Under the pieces are notes generated by a model. That model saw only the letters and a list, made by a program, of their open reading frames with translations, was not told the origin of the DNA and did no database searches. The translations under genes and the position numbers were made by a program. From the NCBI GenBank assembly GCA_965198225.1, contig CBDAOY010000006.1, positions 672,001-736,000 of the forward strand: a stretch of DNA of 64,000 bases, given 5' to 3'. Below are positions 18,100-64,000 of this stretch, piece after piece. This DNA is from Terriglobia bacterium (GTDB lineage Bacteria > Acidobacteriota > Terriglobia > 20CM-2-55-15). How positions within the stretch are numbered: position 1 is the first letter of the stretch; each line of letters opens with the position of its first letter.

Positions 18100-18160
18100 T
18101 CAGTCTTTTCCAAGATAGCTTTTCGAGAGCGGGTTTTGGAGAAGCCTGCCTCCTAAGGAA

Positions 18161-18228
18161 GGTGTAGGTGCGGTCTATGACCGCACACTCTTCGAACCGA
18201 AACATGTGCGCTCAGAGCGCACCTACAC
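18161..18228. repeat. GTAG-type REP doublet (REPIN-like)
   Basis: GTAGGTGCGGTCTATGACCGCAC followed by an inverted variant copy. Confidence 0.8.
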
Positions 18229-23682: not shown

Positions 23683-23801
23683 CAGACGTCTTTCCGGCGC
23701 TGTCGCACTTCTTGTCCCATCCGTCAACCGGCTGTATGATCGCCCGGGCGGGCTTGCGCTTTGACATGACGGCAGCGGGAGACAGCGAGAATTGGGGATC
23801 G

Positions 23802-23873
23802 GGTGTAGGTGCGCTCTATGAGCGCACGTCGCTGCTGCCTGAGGAATGTGCGGTCATAGACCGCACCTACACC
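23802..23873. repeat. GTAG-type REP doublet
   Basis: GGTGTAGGTGCGCTCTATGAGCGCAC...GTGCGGTCATAGACCGCACCTACACC. Confidence 0.8.
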
Positions 23874-23904
23874 TAACCGACGAAATACCCCGGAGGACAA
23901 ACCA

Positions 23905-25521: not shown

Positions 25522-25531
25522 ATGCGTCAGA

Positions 25532-25602
25532 GGTGTAGGTGCGGTCTATGACCGCACGTGTTTCGGTTCGAAGAGTGTGCGGTCATAGACCGCACCTACA
25601 CC
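25532..25602. repeat. GTAG-type REP doublet
   Basis: Perfect inverted pair of GGTGTAGGTGCGGTCTATGACCGCAC between convergent genes. Confidence 0.85.
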
Positions 25603-25638
25603 CGGTCTAAAGTTGCGCTGACTCCGATCCCAGCGCGT

Positions 25639-40079: not shown

Positions 40080-40275
40080 TTTGCAAATTGAGATGACAAA
40101 TCGAGCAATTTCGAATCTCCAGCTTCCCGTATTTGAACAATCCACATTGCCAGTTGCTCATTGGAAATTGGTTCATTTCAGATCTTTCCTGCTCGAAGCC
40201 CGGACCGATGACAAATCGAGCAATTTCGAATCTCCAGCTTCCCGATGCGGATTTGTCCACTAACCAATTTGCGAT
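40080..40275. repeat. AT-rich hairpin/MITE-like repeat, family A copy 2 (reverse, with internal 38-bp duplication)
   Basis: Reverse-complement similarity to 517-674; GATGACAAATCGAGCAATTTCGAATCTCCAGCTTCCCG at 40092 and 40207. Confidence 0.75.
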
Positions 40276-40391
40276 ACATTCATCTTGCTCTCCCCTCTTA
40301 CTTGTCACTCGTCACTTGTCACCTCTTTCTAGCTGGCCACTGACAACTGACCAGTTCTCTATTACTATTTACTGCTTCCGGGCACACGCGT

Positions 40392-42359: not shown

Positions 42360-42391
42360 TCTAGATGCGGTCTATGACGTGTCCAAACAGA

Positions 42392-42417
42392 GGTGTAGGT
42401 GCGGTCTATGACCGCAC
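42392..42417 (+). repeat. single GTAG-type REP unit
   Basis: GGTGTAGGTGCGGTCTATGACCGCAC; degenerate partial copy at 42362-42378. Confidence 0.7.
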
Positions 42418-42527
42418 ATTCTTCGAACAGAAAAAACGTTTCTGCTTAGTCAACACCCGGGGACAGGGCCAGGCCCCTGTCCCCCTCACAGTGGCTCTCT
42501 CGCGGGCCGTTTCGGGAAACTAAAGCC

Positions 42528-44102
42528 ATGGCATTCGACCCTGTAAAACTTGAAATCTTCAAGAGCCTCTTCCACTCCATAGCGGAGGAGATGGGCGCCA
42601 CACTGAAGCGTACGGCCTACTCTCCCAACATCAAGGAGCGCCGCGACTATTCGTGCGCCATCTTCGACGAATCCGGCCGGATGGTGGCCCAGGGCGACCA
42701 CATGCCGGTCCACCTGGGGTCAATGCCCCTGTCGGTCGAAGCCGCGATTGCCAACCGCTCCATCGGCCCCGGTGACATGATCGCGCTCAACGATCCTTAC
42801 AAGGGAGGGACCCATCTGCCTGATATCACGCTTGTTTCGGGTGTTTTCGTGAAGCGCCGCCTCCTGTTCTTCGTCGCGTCGCGAGCCCACCATTCCGACG
42901 TCGGCGGCATGACCCCCGGTTCGATGCCGCTGGCCCAAGAGATTTACCAGGAAGGGCTCCGAATCCCTCCGGTGAAGCTGCTCAAGGCCGGAGAGATCAA
43001 CCGGGATGTCTGGGACCTGGTCCTGCACAACGTTCGGACCCCTGAGGAACGCGACGGGGACCTTGCCGCGATGCTCGGCGCGAACCGCACCGGCGAGCGC
43101 CGGCTGGTGGAGATTCTGCGGAAGTACGGCAGAAGAGAGGTGAACCTCTACATCACCGAGTTGCTCGACTACACCGAACGCATGACCCGGCACGTCATCT
43201 CTGCGATTCCAAACGGCGCGTACGAGGCGGAGGATGTTCTCGACGACGACGGCATCGGCGACCAGCCCATAAAGATCCGAGTCCGTATCACGATTCGAGG
43301 AAGTAACGCCCGCGTCGACTTTTCCGACTCCGATCCACAGGTAGCCGGGAGCGTCAACGCCGTCTATGCCATCACGGCGTCGGTTGTCTCTTACGTCTTC
43401 CGGACGCTGGTGGGGGTTCCGATACCGGCCACCGCCGGCGGGATGAGACCGCTGGAGATCATCGCTCCCGAGGGAACGGTCGTAAACGCCCGGCCTCCGG
43501 CGGCCGTCTGCGGAGGAAACGTCGAAACCTCGCAGCGCATCGTCGACGTGCTGTACCGGTGCCTGGCTCCGGCGCTGCCGGACACCATCCCGGCTGCCAG
43601 CCAGGGAACGATGAACAACGTCACGTTCGGGGGAACTGACGATCGTACGGGAGGTGCCTTCGCCTACTACGAAACGATCGCGGGCGGTATGGGTGCCCGC
43701 CCGACCATGGATGGCATCTCGGGAGTGCATACCCACATGACCAACTCCATGAACACGCCCATCGAGGCTCTCGAGTATGCGTATCCCGTCCGAATCGAGC
43801 GTTACGGGTTGCGTCCCGGATCGGGCGGGGCGGGCCGGCATCAAGGCGGAGATGGAATCGTTCGCCATATCCGCTTTCTGACACCGGCTCAGGTGACGGT
43901 CCTGTCGGAAAGACGCCGCGTCGAACCCTACGGCCTGAGGGGAGGTCGGCCCGGGGAGTCCGGCCGCAACAGGGTCCTACGGACAGGTGGCGGCGTTGAT
44001 CGGTTCCCCTCCAAGTTCACGACCGCAGTTGAGGCCGGCGACGTTTTGTCCGTTGAAACTCCAGGTGGCGGCGGTTGGGGCCGGCCACGGAAGAAGAAAT
44101 GA
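42528..44102 (+). CDS. hydantoinase/oxoprolinase B subunit
   Basis: EEMG..L.RTAYSPNIKERRDYSC, NDPY.GGTHLPD, HHSDVGG, ETPGGGGWG. Confidence 0.93.
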   Translation: MAFDPVKLEIFKSLFHSIAEEMGATLKRTAYSPNIKERRDYSCAIFDESGRMVAQGDHMPVHLGSMPLSVEAAIANRSIGPGDMIALNDPYKGGTHLPDITLVSGVFVKRRLLFFVASRAHHSDVGGMTPGSMPLAQEIYQEGLRIPPVKLLKAGEINRDVWDLVLHNVRTPEERDGDLAAMLGANRTGERRLVEILRKYGRREVNLYITELLDYTERMTRHVISAIPNGAYEAEDVLDDDGIGDQPIKIRVRITIRGSNARVDFSDSDPQVAGSVNAVYAITASVVSYVFRTLVGVPIPATAGGMRPLEIIAPEGTVVNARPPAAVCGGNVETSQRIVDVLYRCLAPALPDTIPAASQGTMNNVTFGGTDDRTGGAFAYYETIAGGMGARPTMDGISGVHTHMTNSMNTPIEALEYAYPVRIERYGLRPGSGGAGRHQGGDGIVRHIRFLTPAQVTVLSERRRVEPYGLRGGRPGESGRNRVLRTGGGVDRFPSKFTTAVEAGDVLSVETPGGGGWGRPRKKK

Positions 44103-44203
44103 ATCTACTCTACCGCTAGGACGGGACAGACCCGTTGGACAGGAGCCCCAGCTTCAAGTCGCCACCAAGGCTTCGGCGCCTGAGAAGCGAAACTTTGGGT
44201 TCG

Positions 44204-44275
44204 GGTGTAGGTGCGCTCTATGAGCGCACAGTGTTTCGGTTCGAAGAATGTGCGGTCATAGACCGCACCTACACC
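44204..44275. repeat. GTAG-type REP doublet
   Basis: Same family as 18161, 23802 and 25532. Confidence 0.8.
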
Positions 44276-44426
44276 TCCTCAGGAGATGCGCCTCTCCAAA
44301 TCTCCTCCCCTCGAAAGACTGTCTTGGACAAGGATGGCTGCACCTCAAACCCCTACGAGCGGCCGAGCCCTTCTGACAAAAATTGGCTCCAACACGACTA
44401 TTTTCTTTATACTTTCCCCATCGTTC

Positions 44427-44832: not shown

Positions 44833-47108
44833 TTGAAGCGTTTTTCCGTTTTTCCCCTTTTAGCCTTGCTGGCGCTGCCGGTGATGCTGTCCGCCGAGGC
44901 GGGGGGCCTGTCCGCGCAGGCGGGAGGGGTCGTCGAGGGCGTTGTCTCGCTCCCCACCGAAGCCCCGGCTCACCGAGCAACCGTCATGCTGGTTCAGCTC
45001 AGTCGCATCGTCGAGACCGACGAAGAAGGGCGATACCGCTTCGAGAACGTTCCAGGAGGCACGTACGAAGTCGTCGCCATCATGTCGGCAATGAGTGCGC
45101 CGAGCCAGGTCGTCGAGGTGTCGGCCGGAGTCACAGTTTCGCTCGACATCCAGCTGGCTGTCTCGCGCCTGAGGCAGCAGATCACGGTAACTGCAACCGG
45201 CCGTGAAGAGCTGACGTTCGAGGCCGTCCCGTCGGTCACGACCTTGGATTCTTTCGAATTGTCCGAGGCCATGGCGACGTCCATCGGCGAAGTCCTGAAT
45301 GGACAGTTGGGCGTCGCGAAGCGCAGCTTCGGCGCAGGCAATGCCCGGCCGGTGGTGCGCGGTTTTGACGGCGACCGGGTTCTCGTGATGCAGGACGGGA
45401 TCCGCGTCGGTTCGCTCGGCGCTCAATCAGGCGATCATGCGGAGCCGATCGACACCAGCAGTGTGGAGCGGGTGGAAGTCGTCAAGGGACCGGCTACGCT
45501 TCTCTACGGCAGCAACGCCGTCGGCGGCGTCGTGAACGCGGTGAGCAGTCACCAGAAATTCACCAGCGGCCCCACCAGGGTCTGCGGGGCCAGGTTTCGA
45601 CTTCCTTCGGAACGGGTAATGAACAGGCGGGCGGCAGCTTCAGTTCCGAGTACGGCTTCGAGAACTGGCTCGTTTGGGTGGGTGGCGGCGGACAGCGAAC
45701 CGATGACTACTCGACGCCAATCGGAAAGATCGAAAACTCGAAGAGCCGAATAAGCAACGGGTCCGCCGGAATCGGCTGGTACTCGGACGGTGGCTTCGTA
45801 AGCGCCGGCTACAAGGCCAACGATGGACGCTCCGGCATTCCGTTCGCCGGAAGTTTGCTCGGGCGCCATGAGCCAGGAGGCGAAGAAGCGGCAGCGGGAG
45901 AGGAAGAGGTCGAAGCCATCGACGTTGCCTTCCGCCGGCACAACGTGCACTTCACCGGCGGTCTCCGAGACCTCGGATCCACCATTGAGGGTTTCGAGCT
46001 CTCGCTGAACTACACGGACTGGAACCAGGACGAAGTCGAAACGCTGCGAGGCGGGATCCAGGAAGTCGGAACGACGTTCGAAAACAAGCAGTTCGTGTAC
46101 CGCGGGGTGTTCGAACAGGCGCGCCGCGGGGTGCTCGGCGGAAGCTTTGGTTTCTGGGGCATGACCCGGGACTACGAGCCCAAGGGCGAGGAGGCGCTGT
46201 CGCCTCCCGTCGACAAGAGAGCGTTCGCGGCTTTTGCGCTGGAGGAACTGGTGTACGACCGCGTAAAAGTTCATCTCGGAGGACGACTCGAACACACCCG
46301 GTACGAGCCAAAGGCGCCGGGCGCCGAGCGGACGGAGTTTTCGAGCCAGGCTTTCACCGGGCTCTCCGCCGGCATCGGCGCCCGCTTCGACCTGTGGTCG
46401 GGCGGGGCGTTCGTCGCCAACTACACGAGCTCGTTTCGCGCTCCAGCGTTGGAAGAGCTTTACAACTTCGGTCCGCACGTCGGCAATCTCACCTTTGAAA
46501 TCGGTAACCCGGACCTTGAACGCGAGCGTTCCAACGGCCTCGACTTCTCCCTCCGGCATCAACAGAGCCGCATCAGCGGTGAGGCCAATTTTTTTTACTA
46601 CGACCTCGACAACTTTGTATTCCTGGCGCCGACGGGTGAAATCGAAAGCGGTCTGACGGAGGCCGTATACGATCAGGGCGACAGCCGGTTCCTGGGAGCG
46701 GAAGTCAAACTCGACGTCGGGATCAACGACAGCATCTGGTTGACCCTGGTCCTGGATACGGTGGACACGCGACTCGAGGCAACCGATGGTGCGCTGCCCC
46801 GGATACCACCACTGCGGGGCACAGTCGGGCTTGACCTCCGGTCCAACGATTTCAGCGTGAGACCGGAAGTGGTCATGGCCGATTCACGGGACGACGTGTT
46901 TTCGACCGAGACGTCGACACCGGGCTACACCGTCTTCAACCTCAGGGCTTCCTACACGATTCCGCAGCAACATCTCGCCCACCACTTGTCGGTCAACTTC
47001 TTCAACATCGGCGACCGGCTCTACCGGAACCACGTGAGCTTCATAAAGGATCTCGCTCCCGAGATCGGGCGCGGGATTCGGTTCTCCTATGCGGTCAAGT
47101 ACTTCTAG
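44833..47108 (+). pseudogene. TonB-dependent receptor (ZnuD/metal-uptake-like) with a 1-nt frameshift near 45554
   Basis: Plug RPVVRG..GDRVLV.QDG...VEVVKGPATLLYGSNAVGGVVN; barrel ending in YF; frames join at CACCA^GAAATT. Confidence 0.82.
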
Positions 47109-49231: not shown

Positions 49232-49298
49232 TCGCGGTTGTTTAGGCGAGTCCGAAATCATCGAGCGGCGACTTACCGACGCTCCTGCTTGCCGGACA

Positions 49299-49957
49299 CC
49301 CGGGGCCAGGGCCAGGCCCCTGTCCCCCCCTCACATTGGCTCTCTCGGGGTTCGTATCGCGAAACGTAGACGCCCGGATTGCAAATTGCGGTATTAAAAA
49401 CAATCCGCATTGCACGTTGCTCATTGGAAATTGCTTCATTTCAGATTTTTCTGCTCGACCGATCACCAATTGAGCAATTTCCAATCTCCAAGCTGCAATG
49501 CGGATTTGTCCATTAATCAATTTGCGATAGATCGATTTCATCCCTGACACGGGAAAAGGTCGGTCGCTTCGCGACCCTTCGTCCTAAGCGAAGACCCGGA
49601 GACAAGGCCAGGCCGCCTGTCCCCCTCACATCGGCTCTCTGGGGTTTCGTGTCGCGAAACGTAGACGCCTGCAAAGACCGGTGTCTGGATTGCAAATTGC
49701 GGTATTGAAAACAATCCGCATTTCACGTTGCTCATTGGAAATTGCTTCATTTCAGATTTTTCTGCTCGACCGATCACCAATTGAGCAATTTCCAATCTCC
49801 AAGCTGCAATGCGGATTTGTCCATTAATCAATTTGCGATAGATCGGTTTCATCCCTGACACGGGAAAAGGTCGGTCGCTTCGCGACCCTTCGTCCTAAGC
49901 GAAGACCCGGAAACAGGGCCAGGCCGCGAGTCCCCCTCACACTGACTCTCTCGCGGT
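49299..49957. repeat. composite tandem repeat (about 311-bp period) containing family A copies 3 and 4
   Basis: Near-identical units starting 49378 and 49689, interleaved with a GGCCAGGCC..GTCCCCCTCACA motif also found near 42456. Confidence 0.8.
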
Positions 49958-50131
49958 TCCTTATGGTTCTAACTGACTACTGACTACTCGCCGCGCCAGC
50001 GGCGTGTCACTCATCACTCGTCACCAATCGCCTCCCAACTGACTACTGACAACTGACTACTCGCGCCGCGCCAGCGGCGCGCCCCCTTTTGTCCTTGATT
50101 GCTTCTTCGACTCTGCATTAGCGTCTTGGGC

Positions 50132-59062: not shown

Positions 59063-59267
59063 GTCCAGATTCTCAACGATAGGACTGGCAGGCTGCTGAA
59101 AAACTCAGTCTTTCGGCAGTCTGCGGCGATGCTGAGAAAAGCCATGGAAGGCTTTTTCAGCATCCTAACTAGTCGCCTGATGAGAGTCATTAGTGGCAAA
59201 CACGGGTGAAGGCCCGTGATAAATTTTAGCTGCTAAAGGGGATTCCGCTTCTAATCTAAGTTAAGCC

Positions 59268-60629
59268 ATGCCCTACGTACCCGGATTCGACTACGACATC
59301 TTCGTCAGCTATGCGGCGGGCGACAACGATCAGGGAGTCGTGGAGCAGTTTGTCGCCACGTTAGAAAAGCAGATCTCCGACAATCTGGTAAACGCTTTCT
59401 CGAAGGAGAAAGTCCGGATCTACTTTGACCGCCAGCGGTTGGGCACTCCAGCCGGCGTCAATTGGGAGGAGCACCTGAAGGCGGCGGCGTCTTCTTCGGC
59501 CATTCTGGTTCCGTTGCTGTCGCCGAACTACCTGAGCTCCCATTACTGCAGCAAGGAGCGGGCCTGGTTCGGCACGCAACCGCATGTGGCCCAGGGTTGT
59601 CCATACGCGGTGGCGGGCTGGGTCCCCATTGGCGAGCATCCGCAACCCCGGGAGCTTGAAAAGGCCCAGCGGCATCCGGCCGGGGATTCGTGGCTGGCTC
59701 TGGCGCCGCCCGAAGATCGGCTCGAAAGCTGCAACGAATTTGCCCTCAAGTTGCGCGACGCCCTCGTGGAGATGCGGGCATCGGTAAGCGCCGTGTTCCT
59801 GGGCCCGGCCGCCGAGGGCCGCGGGGCGGCAGTGCGCAGCCGCCTCCGGGATGAGCTCGAGGTATCCGGTCACCGTGTCGTGCCGGTCCCCGACTTCGTG
59901 TACGAAAACGCCGAGGCAGTGCGAGCCGACCTGAATTCGTCGTTGCTTGCGATCCATTTCCCGGGCGATGGCCTGGATCTGGAAGGACTGATGGCCATCG
60001 AAGAGTCCTTCACGTCGGCGCCGAAGACGCTGCTCGTTCAACCCATCGGTTCCGCCCTATCCGACGACGAAGCCGCTCTGCTCGAAGAGATCGATGCCGG
60101 GTTGGTCCGTGGCGGACGCTTCGCTGGAGCGGCGTATTCCAGGTTCGCCGGCAAGAGCGACGATCAGATCTGGGAAGTGGTTCGCCGGGAGGTGCGGGCG
60201 GCCCGGTTCCAGAAAAACAAGAGCGAGTTTGCCGTGGGTATCGCGTGCGAGGCGGGCGATCTTTCCGGTGCGAAGGCCTTGGCGGCGCTCATCGGTGAAT
60301 TGGGCGTGCCGACACGGTATCCGTCGTTTGAAACCGCCACAAGCATCACCGAGAAGTTGAAGGCGCTGCGTGACACCATCACGGAGAGCCCGGCGCTGAT
60401 CTGTTACTGGGCGGCGTCGGCCGGGACCGGTCTCGAAAAGCGGCTGGCGCAGGATGCCCGCCGCCGGTACAAGGCCAGGGCCTGGTATCTGGGTCCGCCC
60501 CTGGATGCTCCGGCCAAAACGAATTTCACCCGGACGAACGAATTGGTCCTCCGCCAGGCGGCGGACACCGCGGATCTGACCGTGCTGGAACCATTCCTCC
60601 GGGAGTTGGGTTGGGAGCCCAAGGCATGA
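59268..60629 (+). CDS. TIR-domain protein
   Basis: YDIFVSYA, IYFD, SAILVPLLSPNYLSS.YC.KE (TIR catalytic Glu position); stop overlaps the next start (ATGA). Confidence 0.85.
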   Translation: MPYVPGFDYDIFVSYAAGDNDQGVVEQFVATLEKQISDNLVNAFSKEKVRIYFDRQRLGTPAGVNWEEHLKAAASSSAILVPLLSPNYLSSHYCSKERAWFGTQPHVAQGCPYAVAGWVPIGEHPQPRELEKAQRHPAGDSWLALAPPEDRLESCNEFALKLRDALVEMRASVSAVFLGPAAEGRGAAVRSRLRDELEVSGHRVVPVPDFVYENAEAVRADLNSSLLAIHFPGDGLDLEGLMAIEESFTSAPKTLLVQPIGSALSDDEAALLEEIDAGLVRGGRFAGAAYSRFAGKSDDQIWEVVRREVRAARFQKNKSEFAVGIACEAGDLSGAKALAALIGELGVPTRYPSFETATSITEKLKALRDTITESPALICYWAASAGTGLEKRLAQDARRRYKARAWYLGPPLDAPAKTNFTRTNELVLRQAADTADLTVLEPFLRELGWEPKA

Positions 60630-62507
60630 CGCCGAGCGCGATCCCACATAATCCTTACCCGGGCCTTCGTCCGTTCAAGCCGGAAGAGTCGACCCTCTTT
60701 TTTGGCCGCGACGAGCAGATCGGCGAAGCGCTGGACCGGCTGATGCGGCAGAAGCTGCTGGCCGTGGTGGGTGTGTCGGGCTGTGGCAAGAGCTCGCTGG
60801 TCACCGCGGGTATGGTGCCGGCGCTCGAGATGGGTCTGGCGGGCGACCCGGCTCAGCAGTGGCGGATCGAGATCATGCGGCCCGGCGACGGTCCGTTACG
60901 CGAACTGGAACGCTGTCTGGGCTTTGACAGCGGGCCGCTGGTCGAGCGGACCTATGGCCTCCGGGAGGCTGTGAAAGCGAATCTGCCGGAGGCCCAGAAC
61001 CTGCTGCTGGTTGTGGATCAGTTCGAGGAGATCTTCCCCTTTCGCGATCGTATGCGGGAAGGCGGAGGCACCGAGGCCGATCTCTTCGTCAGTTACATGC
61101 TGAGCGCCGCGCAACAGCCGGCCGCCCGGATCTACATCATTCTCACCATGCGGTCGGACTACCTGGGTGAATGCGCCAGGTTCCATGGACTCCCAGAGGC
61201 CCTGAACGACGGCCAGTATCTGGTGCCGCGCATGACGCGTTCGCAGTTGCAGGAGGCGATCGAGAACCCGCTGGGGGGGGATCGAGAGCGCCGACGGCGA
61301 GTCGGTCGAGTTCCATCCGGGTCTGGTCCAGAAGCTGCTGAACGACTGCGACGAAGAACCCGACAACCTTCCGCTGCTGCAGCATCTGCTGCGCCGGTTG
61401 TTTGAACAGTGGCAGGATGCGGGCGCCCGAGGGCAGATCACGCCGGCGATGGCCAGGGACGTCGGAGAACTCGCCGACGCCCTCAACCAGGATGCGGACA
61501 CGGTTTTCAAGGCGCTTTCGACCGAGCGGCAGGGGATCGCGGAAGTGCTCTTCCGCCGGATTACGGAATCGCGCCAGCAGGCAGGCGGCGCCGAGGACGA
61601 ACGGCCCGTGCGGCGTCCGCAAACCGTCGCCCGTCTGGCAGAACTGGCGCAAGTACCCGTGTCCGAGCTGCGCGCCGTGGTGGATCCCTTCGACGAGCGG
61701 GGGCTGCTGGTATTGCGGGCGACGGACGAAGGCGACAAGGTCGACCTCCCCCACGAGTGCCTATGCCCGAAGTGGAACCGGCTGCGGCAGTGGATCGAAG
61801 ACGAAGCGCAGGATGCCAAGGCTCTGCGCTTTCTTCGAGACTCGGTCGGCAAGAGCCACCTCACCGGCTCCGCCCTGGCGGAAGCGGTCGGCTGGCAGGA
61901 CGCGGGCCGGCTGAAGGCCGCCTGGGGCGAGCGCTACTTGAGCCGCGAAAGCGTCCGCGAGGTGGGTGCCTGGGTCACCGGGAGTCGGCGCAGGGCCCGG
62001 GCGACTCAAATCATCCTCGCCGTCGCAGCCGTCGCGGCCATCGTAGGCCTGGGAGGGATGGCCTACTACCAGACAGTGATCGCACAGCAACAGGAAGACC
62101 AACTGATCGCTCAGCAACAGCAGTTGTTCGATGCCGCGATCGTCGTCGACGACCAAACGACCCGGGAGGACCAAAAACATCTGTGGTGGATACGCTTTGA
62201 TAACAGTCGAGACCCTGACTACGGCTCGGACATCAACTGGGATGAAGCAATGGCGTACTGCGATCAGCTATCGCTGCTTGACTATCGAGGTTGGCGACTC
62301 CCGACGATCGACGAACTGGTAGCGATCTGGAACCCAGCCACTAGGTCCAGCCGCTTGCCAATGGCGACTCCCGTGTATGCGTGGAGTTCTGATTTGGAAG
62401 GGTCGGGCTCCGCGTGGCTCTTCTTCTTCCACGACGGCTACCGGCTCTCGAGCTCGGTCGTCTCCCCCTACTTCCGCGCCTTGTGCGTGCGCGTTCCGGA
62501 TGAATGA
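60626..62507 (+). CDS. DGR target: nSTAND1-like NTPase + TM helix + DUF1566/CLec-fold variable domain; +1 frameshift in G8 tract 61273-61280
   Basis: NPYPGLRPF..FFGRD, GVSGCGKSS, LLVVDQFEE, TMRSDY, PLLQH (restored with G7), HE.L...W.RL..W, TM IILAVAAVAAIVGLGG, NWDEA..YC..L....WRLPTI.EL, WSS, ALCVR. Confidence 0.88.
62398..62507 (+). repeat. DGR variable region (VR)
   Basis: Aligns to 63078-63191 with 18 substitutions at TR adenines, one non-A substitution and one 3-nt gap. Confidence 0.95.
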
Positions 62508-62568
62508 TGTGGGTGATTGGGTGATTTGATTATTTCTTTTGTGCAGTCGAACTGAAAAGGTTATCGCG

Positions 62569-62958
62569 ATGGCGCGCTACGAGCACCTGCCGATCTACAA
62601 ACGGACGCTGGACTTGCTGCTCTATTTCGAGAAGATCGTCCCGAAGTTCTCCCGCTACGACAAGTACACCATCGGTACCGACCTGAGAAACACGACGCGA
62701 TCCGTCCTGAAGTTGATTGTTCGCGCCAACAGCAGCCGGGACAAGCGGCCGGTGCTTGAGGAAATCCGCACCGAATTGGAGGAGCTGATGATTCTGGTGC
62801 GCGTGGCCAAAGAGGTCCGGGCGTTCGAGAATCTGAACTCCTATCAGTATTCTGCCGGCGAGATCATAGAGATCAGCCGGCAGAATGAGGGGTGGCTGAG
62901 AAGTCTGGAACGGAAACAACCAGAATCATCCTCTCGATCACAACCGGTAGAGAGATGA
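62569..62958 (+). CDS. avd: DGR accessory variability determinant (Avd, four-helix bundle)
   Basis: LPIYK...DL......F.R..KYTIG..LR...EI.RQ..GW; lies between VR and TR. Confidence 0.88.
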   Translation: MARYEHLPIYKRTLDLLLYFEKIVPKFSRYDKYTIGTDLRNTTRSVLKLIVRANSSRDKRPVLEEIRTELEELMILVRVAKEVRAFENLNSYQYSAGEIIEISRQNEGWLRSLERKQPESSSRSQPVER

Positions 62959-63077
62959 GCGTGTTGACTTCATCATTCTGAGTCCTTCCCGCCCATGTGG
63001 CATATGCATTCAGGGCGTCCTACCTTCGGGCTGGGCGCCCGGTGGCCGGTCTTCGGATCGGACGAAGTGGAAGGATC

Positions 63078-63191
63078 AAGGGTCGGGCTCCGCGTGGAAC
63101 TTCAACTTCAACAACGGCAACCGGAACTCGAACCCGGTCGACAACCGCAACAACAACCGCGCCTTGTGCGTGCGCGTTCCGGAGAATGATG
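63078..63191 (+). ncRNA. DGR template region (TR)
   Basis: Copy of the VR with 11 AAC codons and one GAC at the variable positions; sits between avd and RT. Confidence 0.95.
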
Positions 63192-63599
63192 CGTTCCCTG
63201 TTTTCATTCGAAAAGATTCACGAAGCGTACCTGAGCTGCCGCAAAGGCAAGCGCCGGAGCCGCAATGCCCTTCTTTTCGAGGAGCGCCTGGAGGAGAATC
63301 TGTTTCGACTCTCGGGCGAGCTTCAGGCCCGGACTTATCAGCCATCCCCTTCGACCTGCTTCGTGACCGCGAAACCGAAACACCGGGAGATCTTCGCGGC
63401 CGAGTTTCGCGACCGCGTGGTGCACCACCTGATCGTCACCCACCTCGAACCCATCTGGGAACGGATCTTCATCCACGATTCCTACGCGTGCCGGCCCGGT
63501 AAGGAAACGCATCGGGCGGTGTTCCGACTGCAGGAATTCATGCGGCGTGCGACATCGAACGGGACAAGGACTGCGTATTTTCTCCAGGTCGATGTCCGA
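63186..63599 (+). pseudogene. DGR-type reverse transcriptase, N-terminal about 138 codons only
   Basis: Hand translation MMRSLFSFEKIHEAYLSCRKGKR...LEENL..L..EL..RTYQP...KPKHREIFAAEFRDRVVHH...IFIHDSYACRPGKETH.A...YFLQVDV; homology stops there and no YxDD motif follows. Confidence 0.85.
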
Positions 63600-63719
63600 C
63601 CCGGCTCGGCGCCACAGTGGTTCGTATCCGGATTCCGAACTTCGAGGTACTCGAAGGGCGTGAGAACGATGTCGCGGGTCAGAGACCGCGATGGCGGACA
63701 ATGCGCTGGACCCGACCGT

Positions 63720-64000
63720 TCATGGGCACCCGACGTCGATGCCCAAGTCAGCGAGTTCGGCCAACGAATCCGCGAGAGACAGCGGGGCCCCGTGAGTTGG
63801 GATGATCGTCAGCGGGACCGCGGAATTGCAGCTTGTATCGATGATGTCAAGGTCACGCAGGCCAGCAAAGAGCGACTCCGGGCCACCGAGGACCAGCGTC
63901 AGCCCAAACGCCGCGTTGTAAAGATCCGCCTCGTACACAAACACTTCCCCGCCGGTCTCGACAACAGTAATCAGCATGTCGTCGGCGTGTGGGTTGGCGC
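63720..64000 (-). CDS. 3' end of a probable metallo-beta-lactamase-fold protein (partial)
   Basis: NPHADDML...YEADLY...IIPTHG pattern; runs off the window edge. Confidence 0.55.
   Translation of the reverse strand, partial: ANPHADDMLITVVETGGEVFVYEADLYNAAFGLTLVLGGPESLFAGLRDLDIIDTSCNSAVPLTIIPTHGAPLSLADSLAELADLGIDVGCP

Follow-up and report, generated by a model that had tools for sequence, protein, structure and literature searches.

A stretch of 64,000 nucleotides from a Terriglobia bacterium (contig CBDAOY010000006.1 of assembly GCA_965198225.1, positions 672,001 to 736,000; hereafter the window, with positions counted from its first letter) contains a chromosomal island with the remains of a diversity-generating retroelement (DGR). 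On the plus strand the island carries, in order, a gene for a protein with three TIR-like domains, a target gene that combines an nSTAND1 NTPase with a lectin-fold domain and ends in the variable repeat (VR), an avd gene, the template repeat (TR) and the first part of a reverse transcriptase (RT) gene. A first-pass annotation, made from the letters of the sequence, had described the target, avd, TR and RT as a DGR.

Formal alignment located the TR (63078–63191) and the VR (62398–62500) where the first-pass annotation had placed them. TR positions 63078–63183 aligned with the VR over 106 columns with a single 3-nt gap. With the gap placed over GCA, there were 18 substitutions, of which 17 fell at TR adenines and the other was C>T, and 17 of the 22 TR adenines in the core (VR 62418–62474) were changed. 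An earlier hand count of 18 of 19 substitutions and 18 of 23 core adenines is recovered when the gap is placed over the CGC codon instead, so the two sets of figures differ through gap placement alone. Across the whole repeat, 17 of the 25 adenine positions had changed, against 1 of the 78 others (Fisher p=1.5e-12); mismatches without an adenine bias had been named beforehand as the result that would speak against a DGR. The available sections of Wu et al. 2018 (PMC5758913) give non-A changes in 23 % and indels, mostly adjoining AAC, in about 7 % of 372 DGRs, so the single non-A change and the 3-nt indel lie within known DGR variation. The changed fraction of core adenines (0.77) was the highest among 27 TR/VR pairs measured alike (others 0.39–0.72).

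Recomputation agreed with the first-pass figures of 11 AAC codons and one GAC codon in the TR and a core variant space of 4^23 (7.0e13) DNA sequences without stop codons; this corresponds to 3.5e13 protein sequences. The 12 VR codons hit by these TR codons lie within the last ~20 residues of the lectin-fold domain, at residues 97–115 of its structural model. The GC-rich constant 3′ part of the VR (62475–62500) is a putative initiation of mutagenic homing (IMH) site, judged from sequence only: this 26-nt stretch is identical in TR and VR, divergence follows it, and its TR counterpart (IMH*) extends into the RT start codon. Beyond the VR, T-rich short repeats (GGGTGATTG, GGTGATTT and GATTATTT) precede a weak bulged hairpin (62508–62561, plus strand), as seen by folding and by comparison with related VRs, several of which (L177, L047, L044 and L041) are followed by T-rich repeats of a similar kind. 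The only hairpin 3′ of the IMH is this weak stem, with −6.0 kcal/mol for 62500–62575. No remote VR was found by blastn; a 35-nt look-alike at 46988 was rejected together with every other site in the genome, where ungapped non-A matches reached at most 32 of 48 and 22 of 29, against 47 and 28 at the VR. The adenine-biased differences between the repeats indicate that past mutagenic retrohoming rewrote the tip of the lectin domain.

The avd gene (62572–62958, plus strand) is intact and encodes 128 aa. A hidden Markov model search, proposed earlier as a check, placed it over the cut-off of Pfam bAvd (50.5 bits, cut-off 40) and below that of NCBIfam DivGenRetAVD (56.8 bits, cut-off 80). It is followed by a non-coding stretch (62950–63077, plus strand) that is conserved in an alignment with L177, L040, L041, L042 and L047 and presumably forms the 5′ part of the DGR RNA. 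The gene order target-avd-TR-RT is as first annotated and is that of the BPP-1 type of DGR. An intact sister DGR (L177; G427:C18, 1–8758) was reached through a search for the Lcl_C lectin-fold domain in 401 genomes of the phylum, seven of which matched, including the host genome (G000). The two elements are alike in avd (58 % identity), RT (61 % over the shared part), avd-TR spacer, TR, T-rich repeats after the VR and Lcl_C targets; unlike the window element, the sister has a complete RT (492 aa, with YVDD), three VRs and two targets that are Ser/Thr kinase-Lcl_C proteins. A gene for a REP-associated (repetitive extragenic palindromic) tyrosine transposase lies between its first VR and avd.

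Further DGR-related loci were seen in the genome collection. A genome of the host's family holds a different DGR with two VRs (L148; G006:C1:4936000–4952000), and in G015 two avd-like genes (L149 and L150) lack an RT match in their neighbourhood. Further members of the Lcl_C subfamily occur in L152 (8247–8565), L153 (5339–5662), L178, L179 and L180, where the 14-kb stretches yielded neither avd nor RT.

The RT frame (63189–63599, plus strand) starts within the end of the TR and comprises the first 137 codons of a DGR RT. Homology ends at LQVDVR and the YxDD motif is absent; relatives have Y[VCM]DD ~230–250 residues from the same start, ~100 residues past the point at which the window RT ends. 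A CIDD string in the read-through frame was rejected as a candidate, as it is the next gene read in antisense and shows no homology to RTs. The 137-residue fragment retrieved 26 loci at 37–60 % identity from the genome collection, with an adenine-biased TR/VR pair in 19 of the 26. A tree of 137 columns and 34 sequences (the window RT, 23 of the 26 loci, L148 and nine of the 34 RVT_1 matches of the host genome; L056, L061, L063, named reference RTs and retron RTs were left out) placed the window RT among DGR-like RTs, separated by a branch with 100 % bootstrap from the nine host RTs, which are of group II intron type; branches within the DGR group were weak. The RT fragment thus clusters with DGR RTs and apart from host group II intron-type RTs, where clustering with group II intron or retron RTs had been named as the contrary outcome, in a tree without the latter. 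The 34 RVT_1 matches of the host genome form several near-identical families and are apparently expanded group II introns. Among DGRs of other public assemblies, RT frames also look broken: an 850-aa open frame in L040 (7998–10553) runs into an unrelated gene, and those of L042 and L050 stop early.

By origin, through its adenine bias, its bAvd match and the grouping of its RT, the element is a DGR as first annotated; its RT lacks the YxDD of a catalytically complete enzyme, and it is a DGR relic that, as assembled, cannot work. The intact sister RT matched the host genome at this locus, by residues 2–139, and its other 27 matches in a genome search (28 in total) were all at most 32 % identical. 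The host genome, which is 97 % complete and in nine contigs, yielded no further DGR RT, avd, Lcl_C domain or VR.

The break in the RT gene adjoins a deletion scar of 114 bases (63602–63715) made up of three pieces of an amidase gene: a forward piece (gene nt 1027–1071), an inverted piece of the adjoining 36 bases (1110–1075) and a forward piece 200 bases further along the gene (1311–1342). They are 98, 97 and 91 % identical, respectively, to the amidase of G020 (L012), a member of the host's family in which the gene is intact. No other copy of the pieces was found in the host genome, where the best other amidase copy has 70 % DNA identity. The first junction lies on a 7-base repeat, CTTCGAG, which makes a fold-back. 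As the genome encodes Ku (one gene, C8:899583), end-joining repair is a possible cause of the scar.

The target gene is also damaged. Its 5′ part (60626–61272, plus strand) encodes an nSTAND1 NTPase with Walker A (GVSGCGKSS) and Walker B (VVDQFEE) motifs (Pfam nSTAND1 positions 1–200, 181.7 bits); the Pfam match starts 10 residues past the ATG, with no other Pfam domain ahead of it. A run of eight G (61273–61280) is the site of a +1 frameshift, after which the first frame stops at 61405, while the second frame (61281–62009) encodes the rest of nSTAND1 (Pfam positions 235–367, 67.6 bits) and a helical linker. A single predicted transmembrane helix (62010–62066; Kyte–Doolittle score 2.31) follows behind a basic patch (RRRARATQ-IILAVAAVAAIVGLGGMAY), and a C-terminal Lcl_C (DUF1566) domain of C-type-lectin fold extends to the stop codon (62157–62507; 50.5 bits, cut-off 34.9). 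FGE-sulfatase scored below its cut-off on this tail (18.6 against 23.3 bits). The Lcl_C model had a predicted local distance difference test (pLDDT) score of 89.0, and its Foldseek matches were C-type lectin folds, including the C-terminal domain of Legionella Lcl (8q4e, TM-score 0.61). The fusion of a STAND NTPase with a C-terminal lectin fold is read in two frames in the window and in one frame in the homologs P0073 and P0074. A like hydrophobic helix (score 2.06–3.03) was present in 19 of 19 proteins checked. Under the positive-inside rule, positively charged flanks of membrane helices stay in the cytoplasm, and on this basis the NTPase is predicted to lie inside and the lectin domain outside.

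Evidence for the frameshift came from nine homologs with the same longer linker, in which the spacer from EAIE.P to the F of FH.GLV has 13 residues and is 1 nt shorter than in the window target. A 19-nt insertion had been considered as the cause on the basis of WD40-type homologs with a shorter linker and was withdrawn after comparison with the longer-linker homologs. Six public sequencing runs from three studies contain the stretch, and contigs of four (X1, X3, X4 and X6) were compared. X3 and X4 each have one contig across 59000–64000, with one differing letter and no gaps; the X1 contig covers 61001–64000 with no differences; and in X6 the VR and the RT junction are each reached by pieces. 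Among the differences listed there were none in the VR in these four runs, as seen in contigs, from which rare variants are dropped, and no G-run indel in X1, X3 and X4, the three runs that cover it. The comparison was made at the contig level, with library type unrecorded and with joints with short sides treated as repeats of other organisms. At the level of the consensus, both the RT break and the frameshift are real.

These data bear on the possibility that the DGR is intact and active and that the truncation and frameshift are assembly errors. The frameshift does fall in a homopolymer, a common place for errors in long reads, in a genome of nine long contigs, and avd, TR and the TIR gene are intact. 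Set against this, separately assembled contigs from runs of three studies share the G run, the RT junction and the VR, the rest of the RT was found nowhere in the genome, and the amidase gene of the scar has no intact close copy there. This explanation is very improbable and already largely refuted. The capacity for 7e13 variants implied by the first-pass annotation is not available now, with an RT that lacks YxDD, no second DGR RT found, a frameshifted target and the same VR in four runs.

A different explanation accepts the lesions and gives them a function: the G run would act as an ON/OFF switch by phase variation, and the receptor would have been domesticated when the RT was lost and a useful, selected VR was locked in. 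Homologs have no G run at the site (LEAI, LKTI, VESI), which marks the run as new, and a slip of one base can be reversed; the high changed fraction of VR adenines and the intact TIR gene also fit. The out-of-frame form alone was seen in the three runs with listed contigs over the site, eight G can occur by chance in a gene of 64 % G+C, and a pair of independent lesions within a single 4.4-kb island is better explained by loss of selection, which makes a switch unlikely.

The intact state of avd, TR and the conserved stretch upstream of the TR leaves room for an RT supplied in trans, given 34 RVT_1 matches in the genome and a related avd-TR-RT cassette, ~82 % identical, in X4 and X6 (records 21 and 29, aligned at 62647–63127 and 63329–63544). 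That cassette is on a separate 3.2-kb contig and probably belongs to another organism. The nine host RTs in the tree fall outside the DGR group, the other matches to the sister RT have the low identities given above, and no VR variation was seen in the runs compared; rescue of this kind is extremely improbable.

Upstream of the target, and overlapping its ATG with the stop codon (ATGA), lies an intact gene for a 453-aa protein of three tandem TIR-like alpha/beta domains (59268–60629, plus strand). Domain 1 matched Pfam TIR_2 (39.4 bits, cut-off 28), and its E97, the putative NADase glutamate, was invariant in 56 sequences. In a structural model (pLDDT 82.9), domain 1 (residues 7–167) gave a Z score of 11.8 to the L6 TIR; domain 2 (172–313) matched TIR and nucleotide N-glycosidase folds equally (Z 11.7 to the IL-1RAcPb TIR and 11.8 to a CMP N-glycosidase); and domain 3 (317–453) gave Z 10.3 to TIR-STING. 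A whole-protein Foldseek search was uninformative (TM-score at most 0.29), and a search of the ESM Atlas with residues 170–453 returned unnamed clusters at 0.91 with a minority of DUF4062/TIR_2 labels, which is a lead only.

The family of the TIR protein is conserved, with 71 matches (48–87 % identity for full-length ones), two of them named as from Acidobacteriota. Of 22 metagenome loci with at least 62 % TIR identity, 15 have an nSTAND1 gene directly after the TIR gene; six of the remaining seven end in or just past the TIR gene, and the seventh has only 39 residues of it. Pairs of TIR and nSTAND1-transmembrane-WD40 genes were found in metagenome contigs L072, L073, L075, L080, L084 and L143 and in the class-level relative G313 (L146), with TIR identities of 64–69 % (metagenome loci), nSTAND1 identities of 72–77 % and the same stop/start overlap. 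All six complete TIR-nSTAND1 metagenome loci tested carried WD40 arrays, and searches of the TIR-nSTAND1-WD40 loci for avd, RT and TR/VR found none. These pairs have the same two-gene core as the island, with a WD40 propeller array as the tail. Within the class, the TIR protein matched 2 of 399 other genomes, at 33–34 %, and a DNA comparison with 39 other relatives gave matches to short pieces only and did not recover the island. In the same genus, G001–G003 have an S9 peptidase followed by other genes, and the metallo-beta-lactamase-fold gene that lies downstream in the window has only 26–28 % matches there.

To the same nSTAND1 core, protein-only homologs join tails of Lcl_C (P0073, P0074 and P0100), FGE-sulfatase (P0075, P0091 and P0098), GH19 (P0090), a NUDIX-like domain (P0095), WD40 (seven clear and one weak) or no Pfam domain (P0077, P0094 and P0099). 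P0090 is the closest nSTAND1 homolog (77 %) and has its GH19 chitinase/lysozyme-like domain past the membrane helix. The same Lcl_C subfamily (SAW.F.F..G...RALCVR) also occurs on TIR, kinase or other N-terminal parts (P0083–P0087, P0132, P0101 and P0089), in tails that vary where the window TR has AAC.

The relation between the two proteins of the core was modelled on the L073 TIR-nSTAND1 pair. The complex scored 0.65, against 0.00 for the best of three controls, with runs agreeing on at least 68 % of contacts and a partner pLDDT of at least 79; this score mark was attained by 116 of the 157 solved pairs and by 2 of the 215 mismatched ones, figures that apply only roughly to our own alignments. 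The predicted interface places TIR residues 328–400 on nSTAND1 residues 19–78 and 218–221, nearly all nSTAND1 contacts being upstream of the frameshift, and 18 of 24 and 22 of 29 interface residues are identical in the window proteins. The model supports binding of TIR domain 3 to the N-terminal region of the NTPase.

Taken together, the locus is probably the decayed remnant of a DGR that served to vary the outer sensor of an NLR-like transmembrane receptor for defence, part of a two-gene module on a chromosomal island. In the intact state, judging from the repeats, RT and Avd would have made a copy of the TR transcript that was faulty at adenines, and this cDNA would have taken the place of the VR and altered 12 codons. 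With the one transmembrane helix between them, the lectin domain would lie beyond the inner membrane and the nSTAND1 NTPase would stay in the cytoplasm, where the translationally coupled tri-TIR protein is predicted to dock on the NTPase N-terminal region via its third TIR-like domain. From what is known of these families, an outside ligand would cluster the NTPase and bring together TIR domain 1 with its E97, whose cleavage of NAD+, or production of a nucleotide signal, would arrest growth or kill the cell. Decay evidently proceeded through a deletion that cost the RT about two thirds of its length, removed most of the neighbouring amidase gene and left the scrambled scar, and through a +1 slip in the G run that split the receptor; the VR appears frozen. 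As TIR, avd and TR are still intact, the data suggest that the decay was recent.

Several observations weigh against this reading. The topology is read from hydropathy only, and the outside position, the TIR docking, the NAD+ output and the defence role itself are modelled or inferred. The predicted interface is no more conserved than the rest of either protein (0.76 versus 0.76; 0.78 versus 0.80), and the complex was modelled, with our own alignments, on the WD40-tailed L073 pair instead of the split protein of the window. The neighbouring genes have housekeeping roles and form no defence island, and PADLOC gave no convincing match for the TIR, nSTAND1 or Lcl_C parts. For the state of the locus, contigs drop rare variants and some of the runs may be the source of the assembly.

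The absence of PADLOC support also speaks for an explanation in which the target is a surface receptor for ligand binding or signalling without an immune role, as in adhesion or nutrient sensing. The targets of the sister DGR, which are kinase-Lcl_C proteins, would fit this, and most cellular DGR targets are membrane-anchored and read as binding extracellular substrates in the accessible part of Roux et al. (bioRxiv 10.1101/2020.04.01.020958). Adhesion needs neither a cytoplasmic STAND NTPase nor a coupled TIR protein with an invariant E97, and the same core bears WD40 tails, like other NLR-type proteins; a non-immune receptor is unlikely.

Comparison with known systems places the locus as a variant. 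It resembles the Legionella DGR, of the CLec2/DUF1566 class, as given in PMC5758913: the gene order is the same, the TR is rich in AAC, the changes are specific to adenines, the target ends in the VR and has a DUF1566 (Lcl_C) domain, and the constant 3′ part is GC-rich. In contrast to the DGRs of that source, the RT ends before YxDD, the target is frameshifted and there is no strong GC-rich inverted repeat past the VR, a feature of 34 % of DGRs; the target is an NTPase-bearing receptor and not a phage tail protein or lipoprotein. In the same sections of Roux et al. cited above, 50–75 % of DGRs look active. Conflict systems that join STAND (including nSTAND1) to FGS, with TIR and other effectors and often linked to DGRs, are described in the part of Kaur et al. 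2021 (PMC8195603) that was available, and DGR-varied nSTAND1/NACHT-CLec (C-type lectin) targets, with one NACHT-CLec protein predicted to be periplasmic, in that of Dore et al. 2024 (PMC10907252), where CLec-STAND proteins are stated to be experimentally uncharacterised. The locus is like these systems in its nSTAND1 fused to a DGR-varied C-terminal lectin fold and in its TIR effector. It differs in that its sensor is Lcl_C/DUF1566 and not FGE/FGS, so it is a variant and not a strict member; its NTPase has no N-terminal effector or effector-associated domain (EAD), the effector being a separate three-domain TIR protein with predicted direct docking; and it has one target instead of two and is dead in the host genome. 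The kind of system is already described by these authors, and the separate tri-TIR partner with an Lcl_C sensor is the variant; an nSTAND1-transmembrane-Lcl_C target paired with a three-domain TIR protein from a gene of its own was not found in the literature listings searched or in the main texts cited here.

At the left edge of the island lies a shortened copy of a miniature inverted-repeat transposable element (59084–59167), whose ends match ~175-bp copies on C2, C7, C8 and C9 and the ends of 1.33-kb insertion sequence-like elements with CTAG-flanked inverted ends (C7:431780–433109, C8:315667–316997 and C3:126990–128320 of the host genome). On the right, outside the element, lies the 3′ end of a convergent gene for a 535-aa protein of metallo-beta-lactamase fold (63720–64000, minus strand), for which all NCBIfam matches were below cut-off. 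Acidobacterial ADOP permease and VWFA families scored over their cut-offs nearby, from which the host is probably an acidobacterium, and a scan for promoters and terminators remained at the level of chance. Elsewhere in the window there are several families of REP-like palindromic dispersed repeats and a 273-nt tandem duplication with a period of 311 (49279–50064, 18160–18217, 23784–23874, 25531–25618, 42391–42529, 44186–44291, 505–666 and 40092–40325).

The DGR itself is ordinary and dead, and the locus is a clear case of DGR loss supported across studies; its use lies in a small, testable two-gene module. Intact relatives (P0073 and P0074 with Lcl_C, L073 with WD40) and the predicted interface allow a test of DGR-varied lectin domains as outside-facing immune sensors, a role proposed in the available text of Dore et al. 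2024 (PMC10907252). It is conceivable, as a tentative extension, that the module belongs to a plug-in family in which a fixed nSTAND1 and membrane helix would take WD40, FGE, Lcl_C, GH19 or NUDIX-like tails, signal across the inner membrane and recruit the tri-TIR protein via domain 3 to trigger the domain 1 NADase. The DGR would then give the Lcl_C branch an antibody-like diversity outside the cell, in a Toll-like layout with an adaptive ectodomain, and this genome would show how such a receptor gets switched off.

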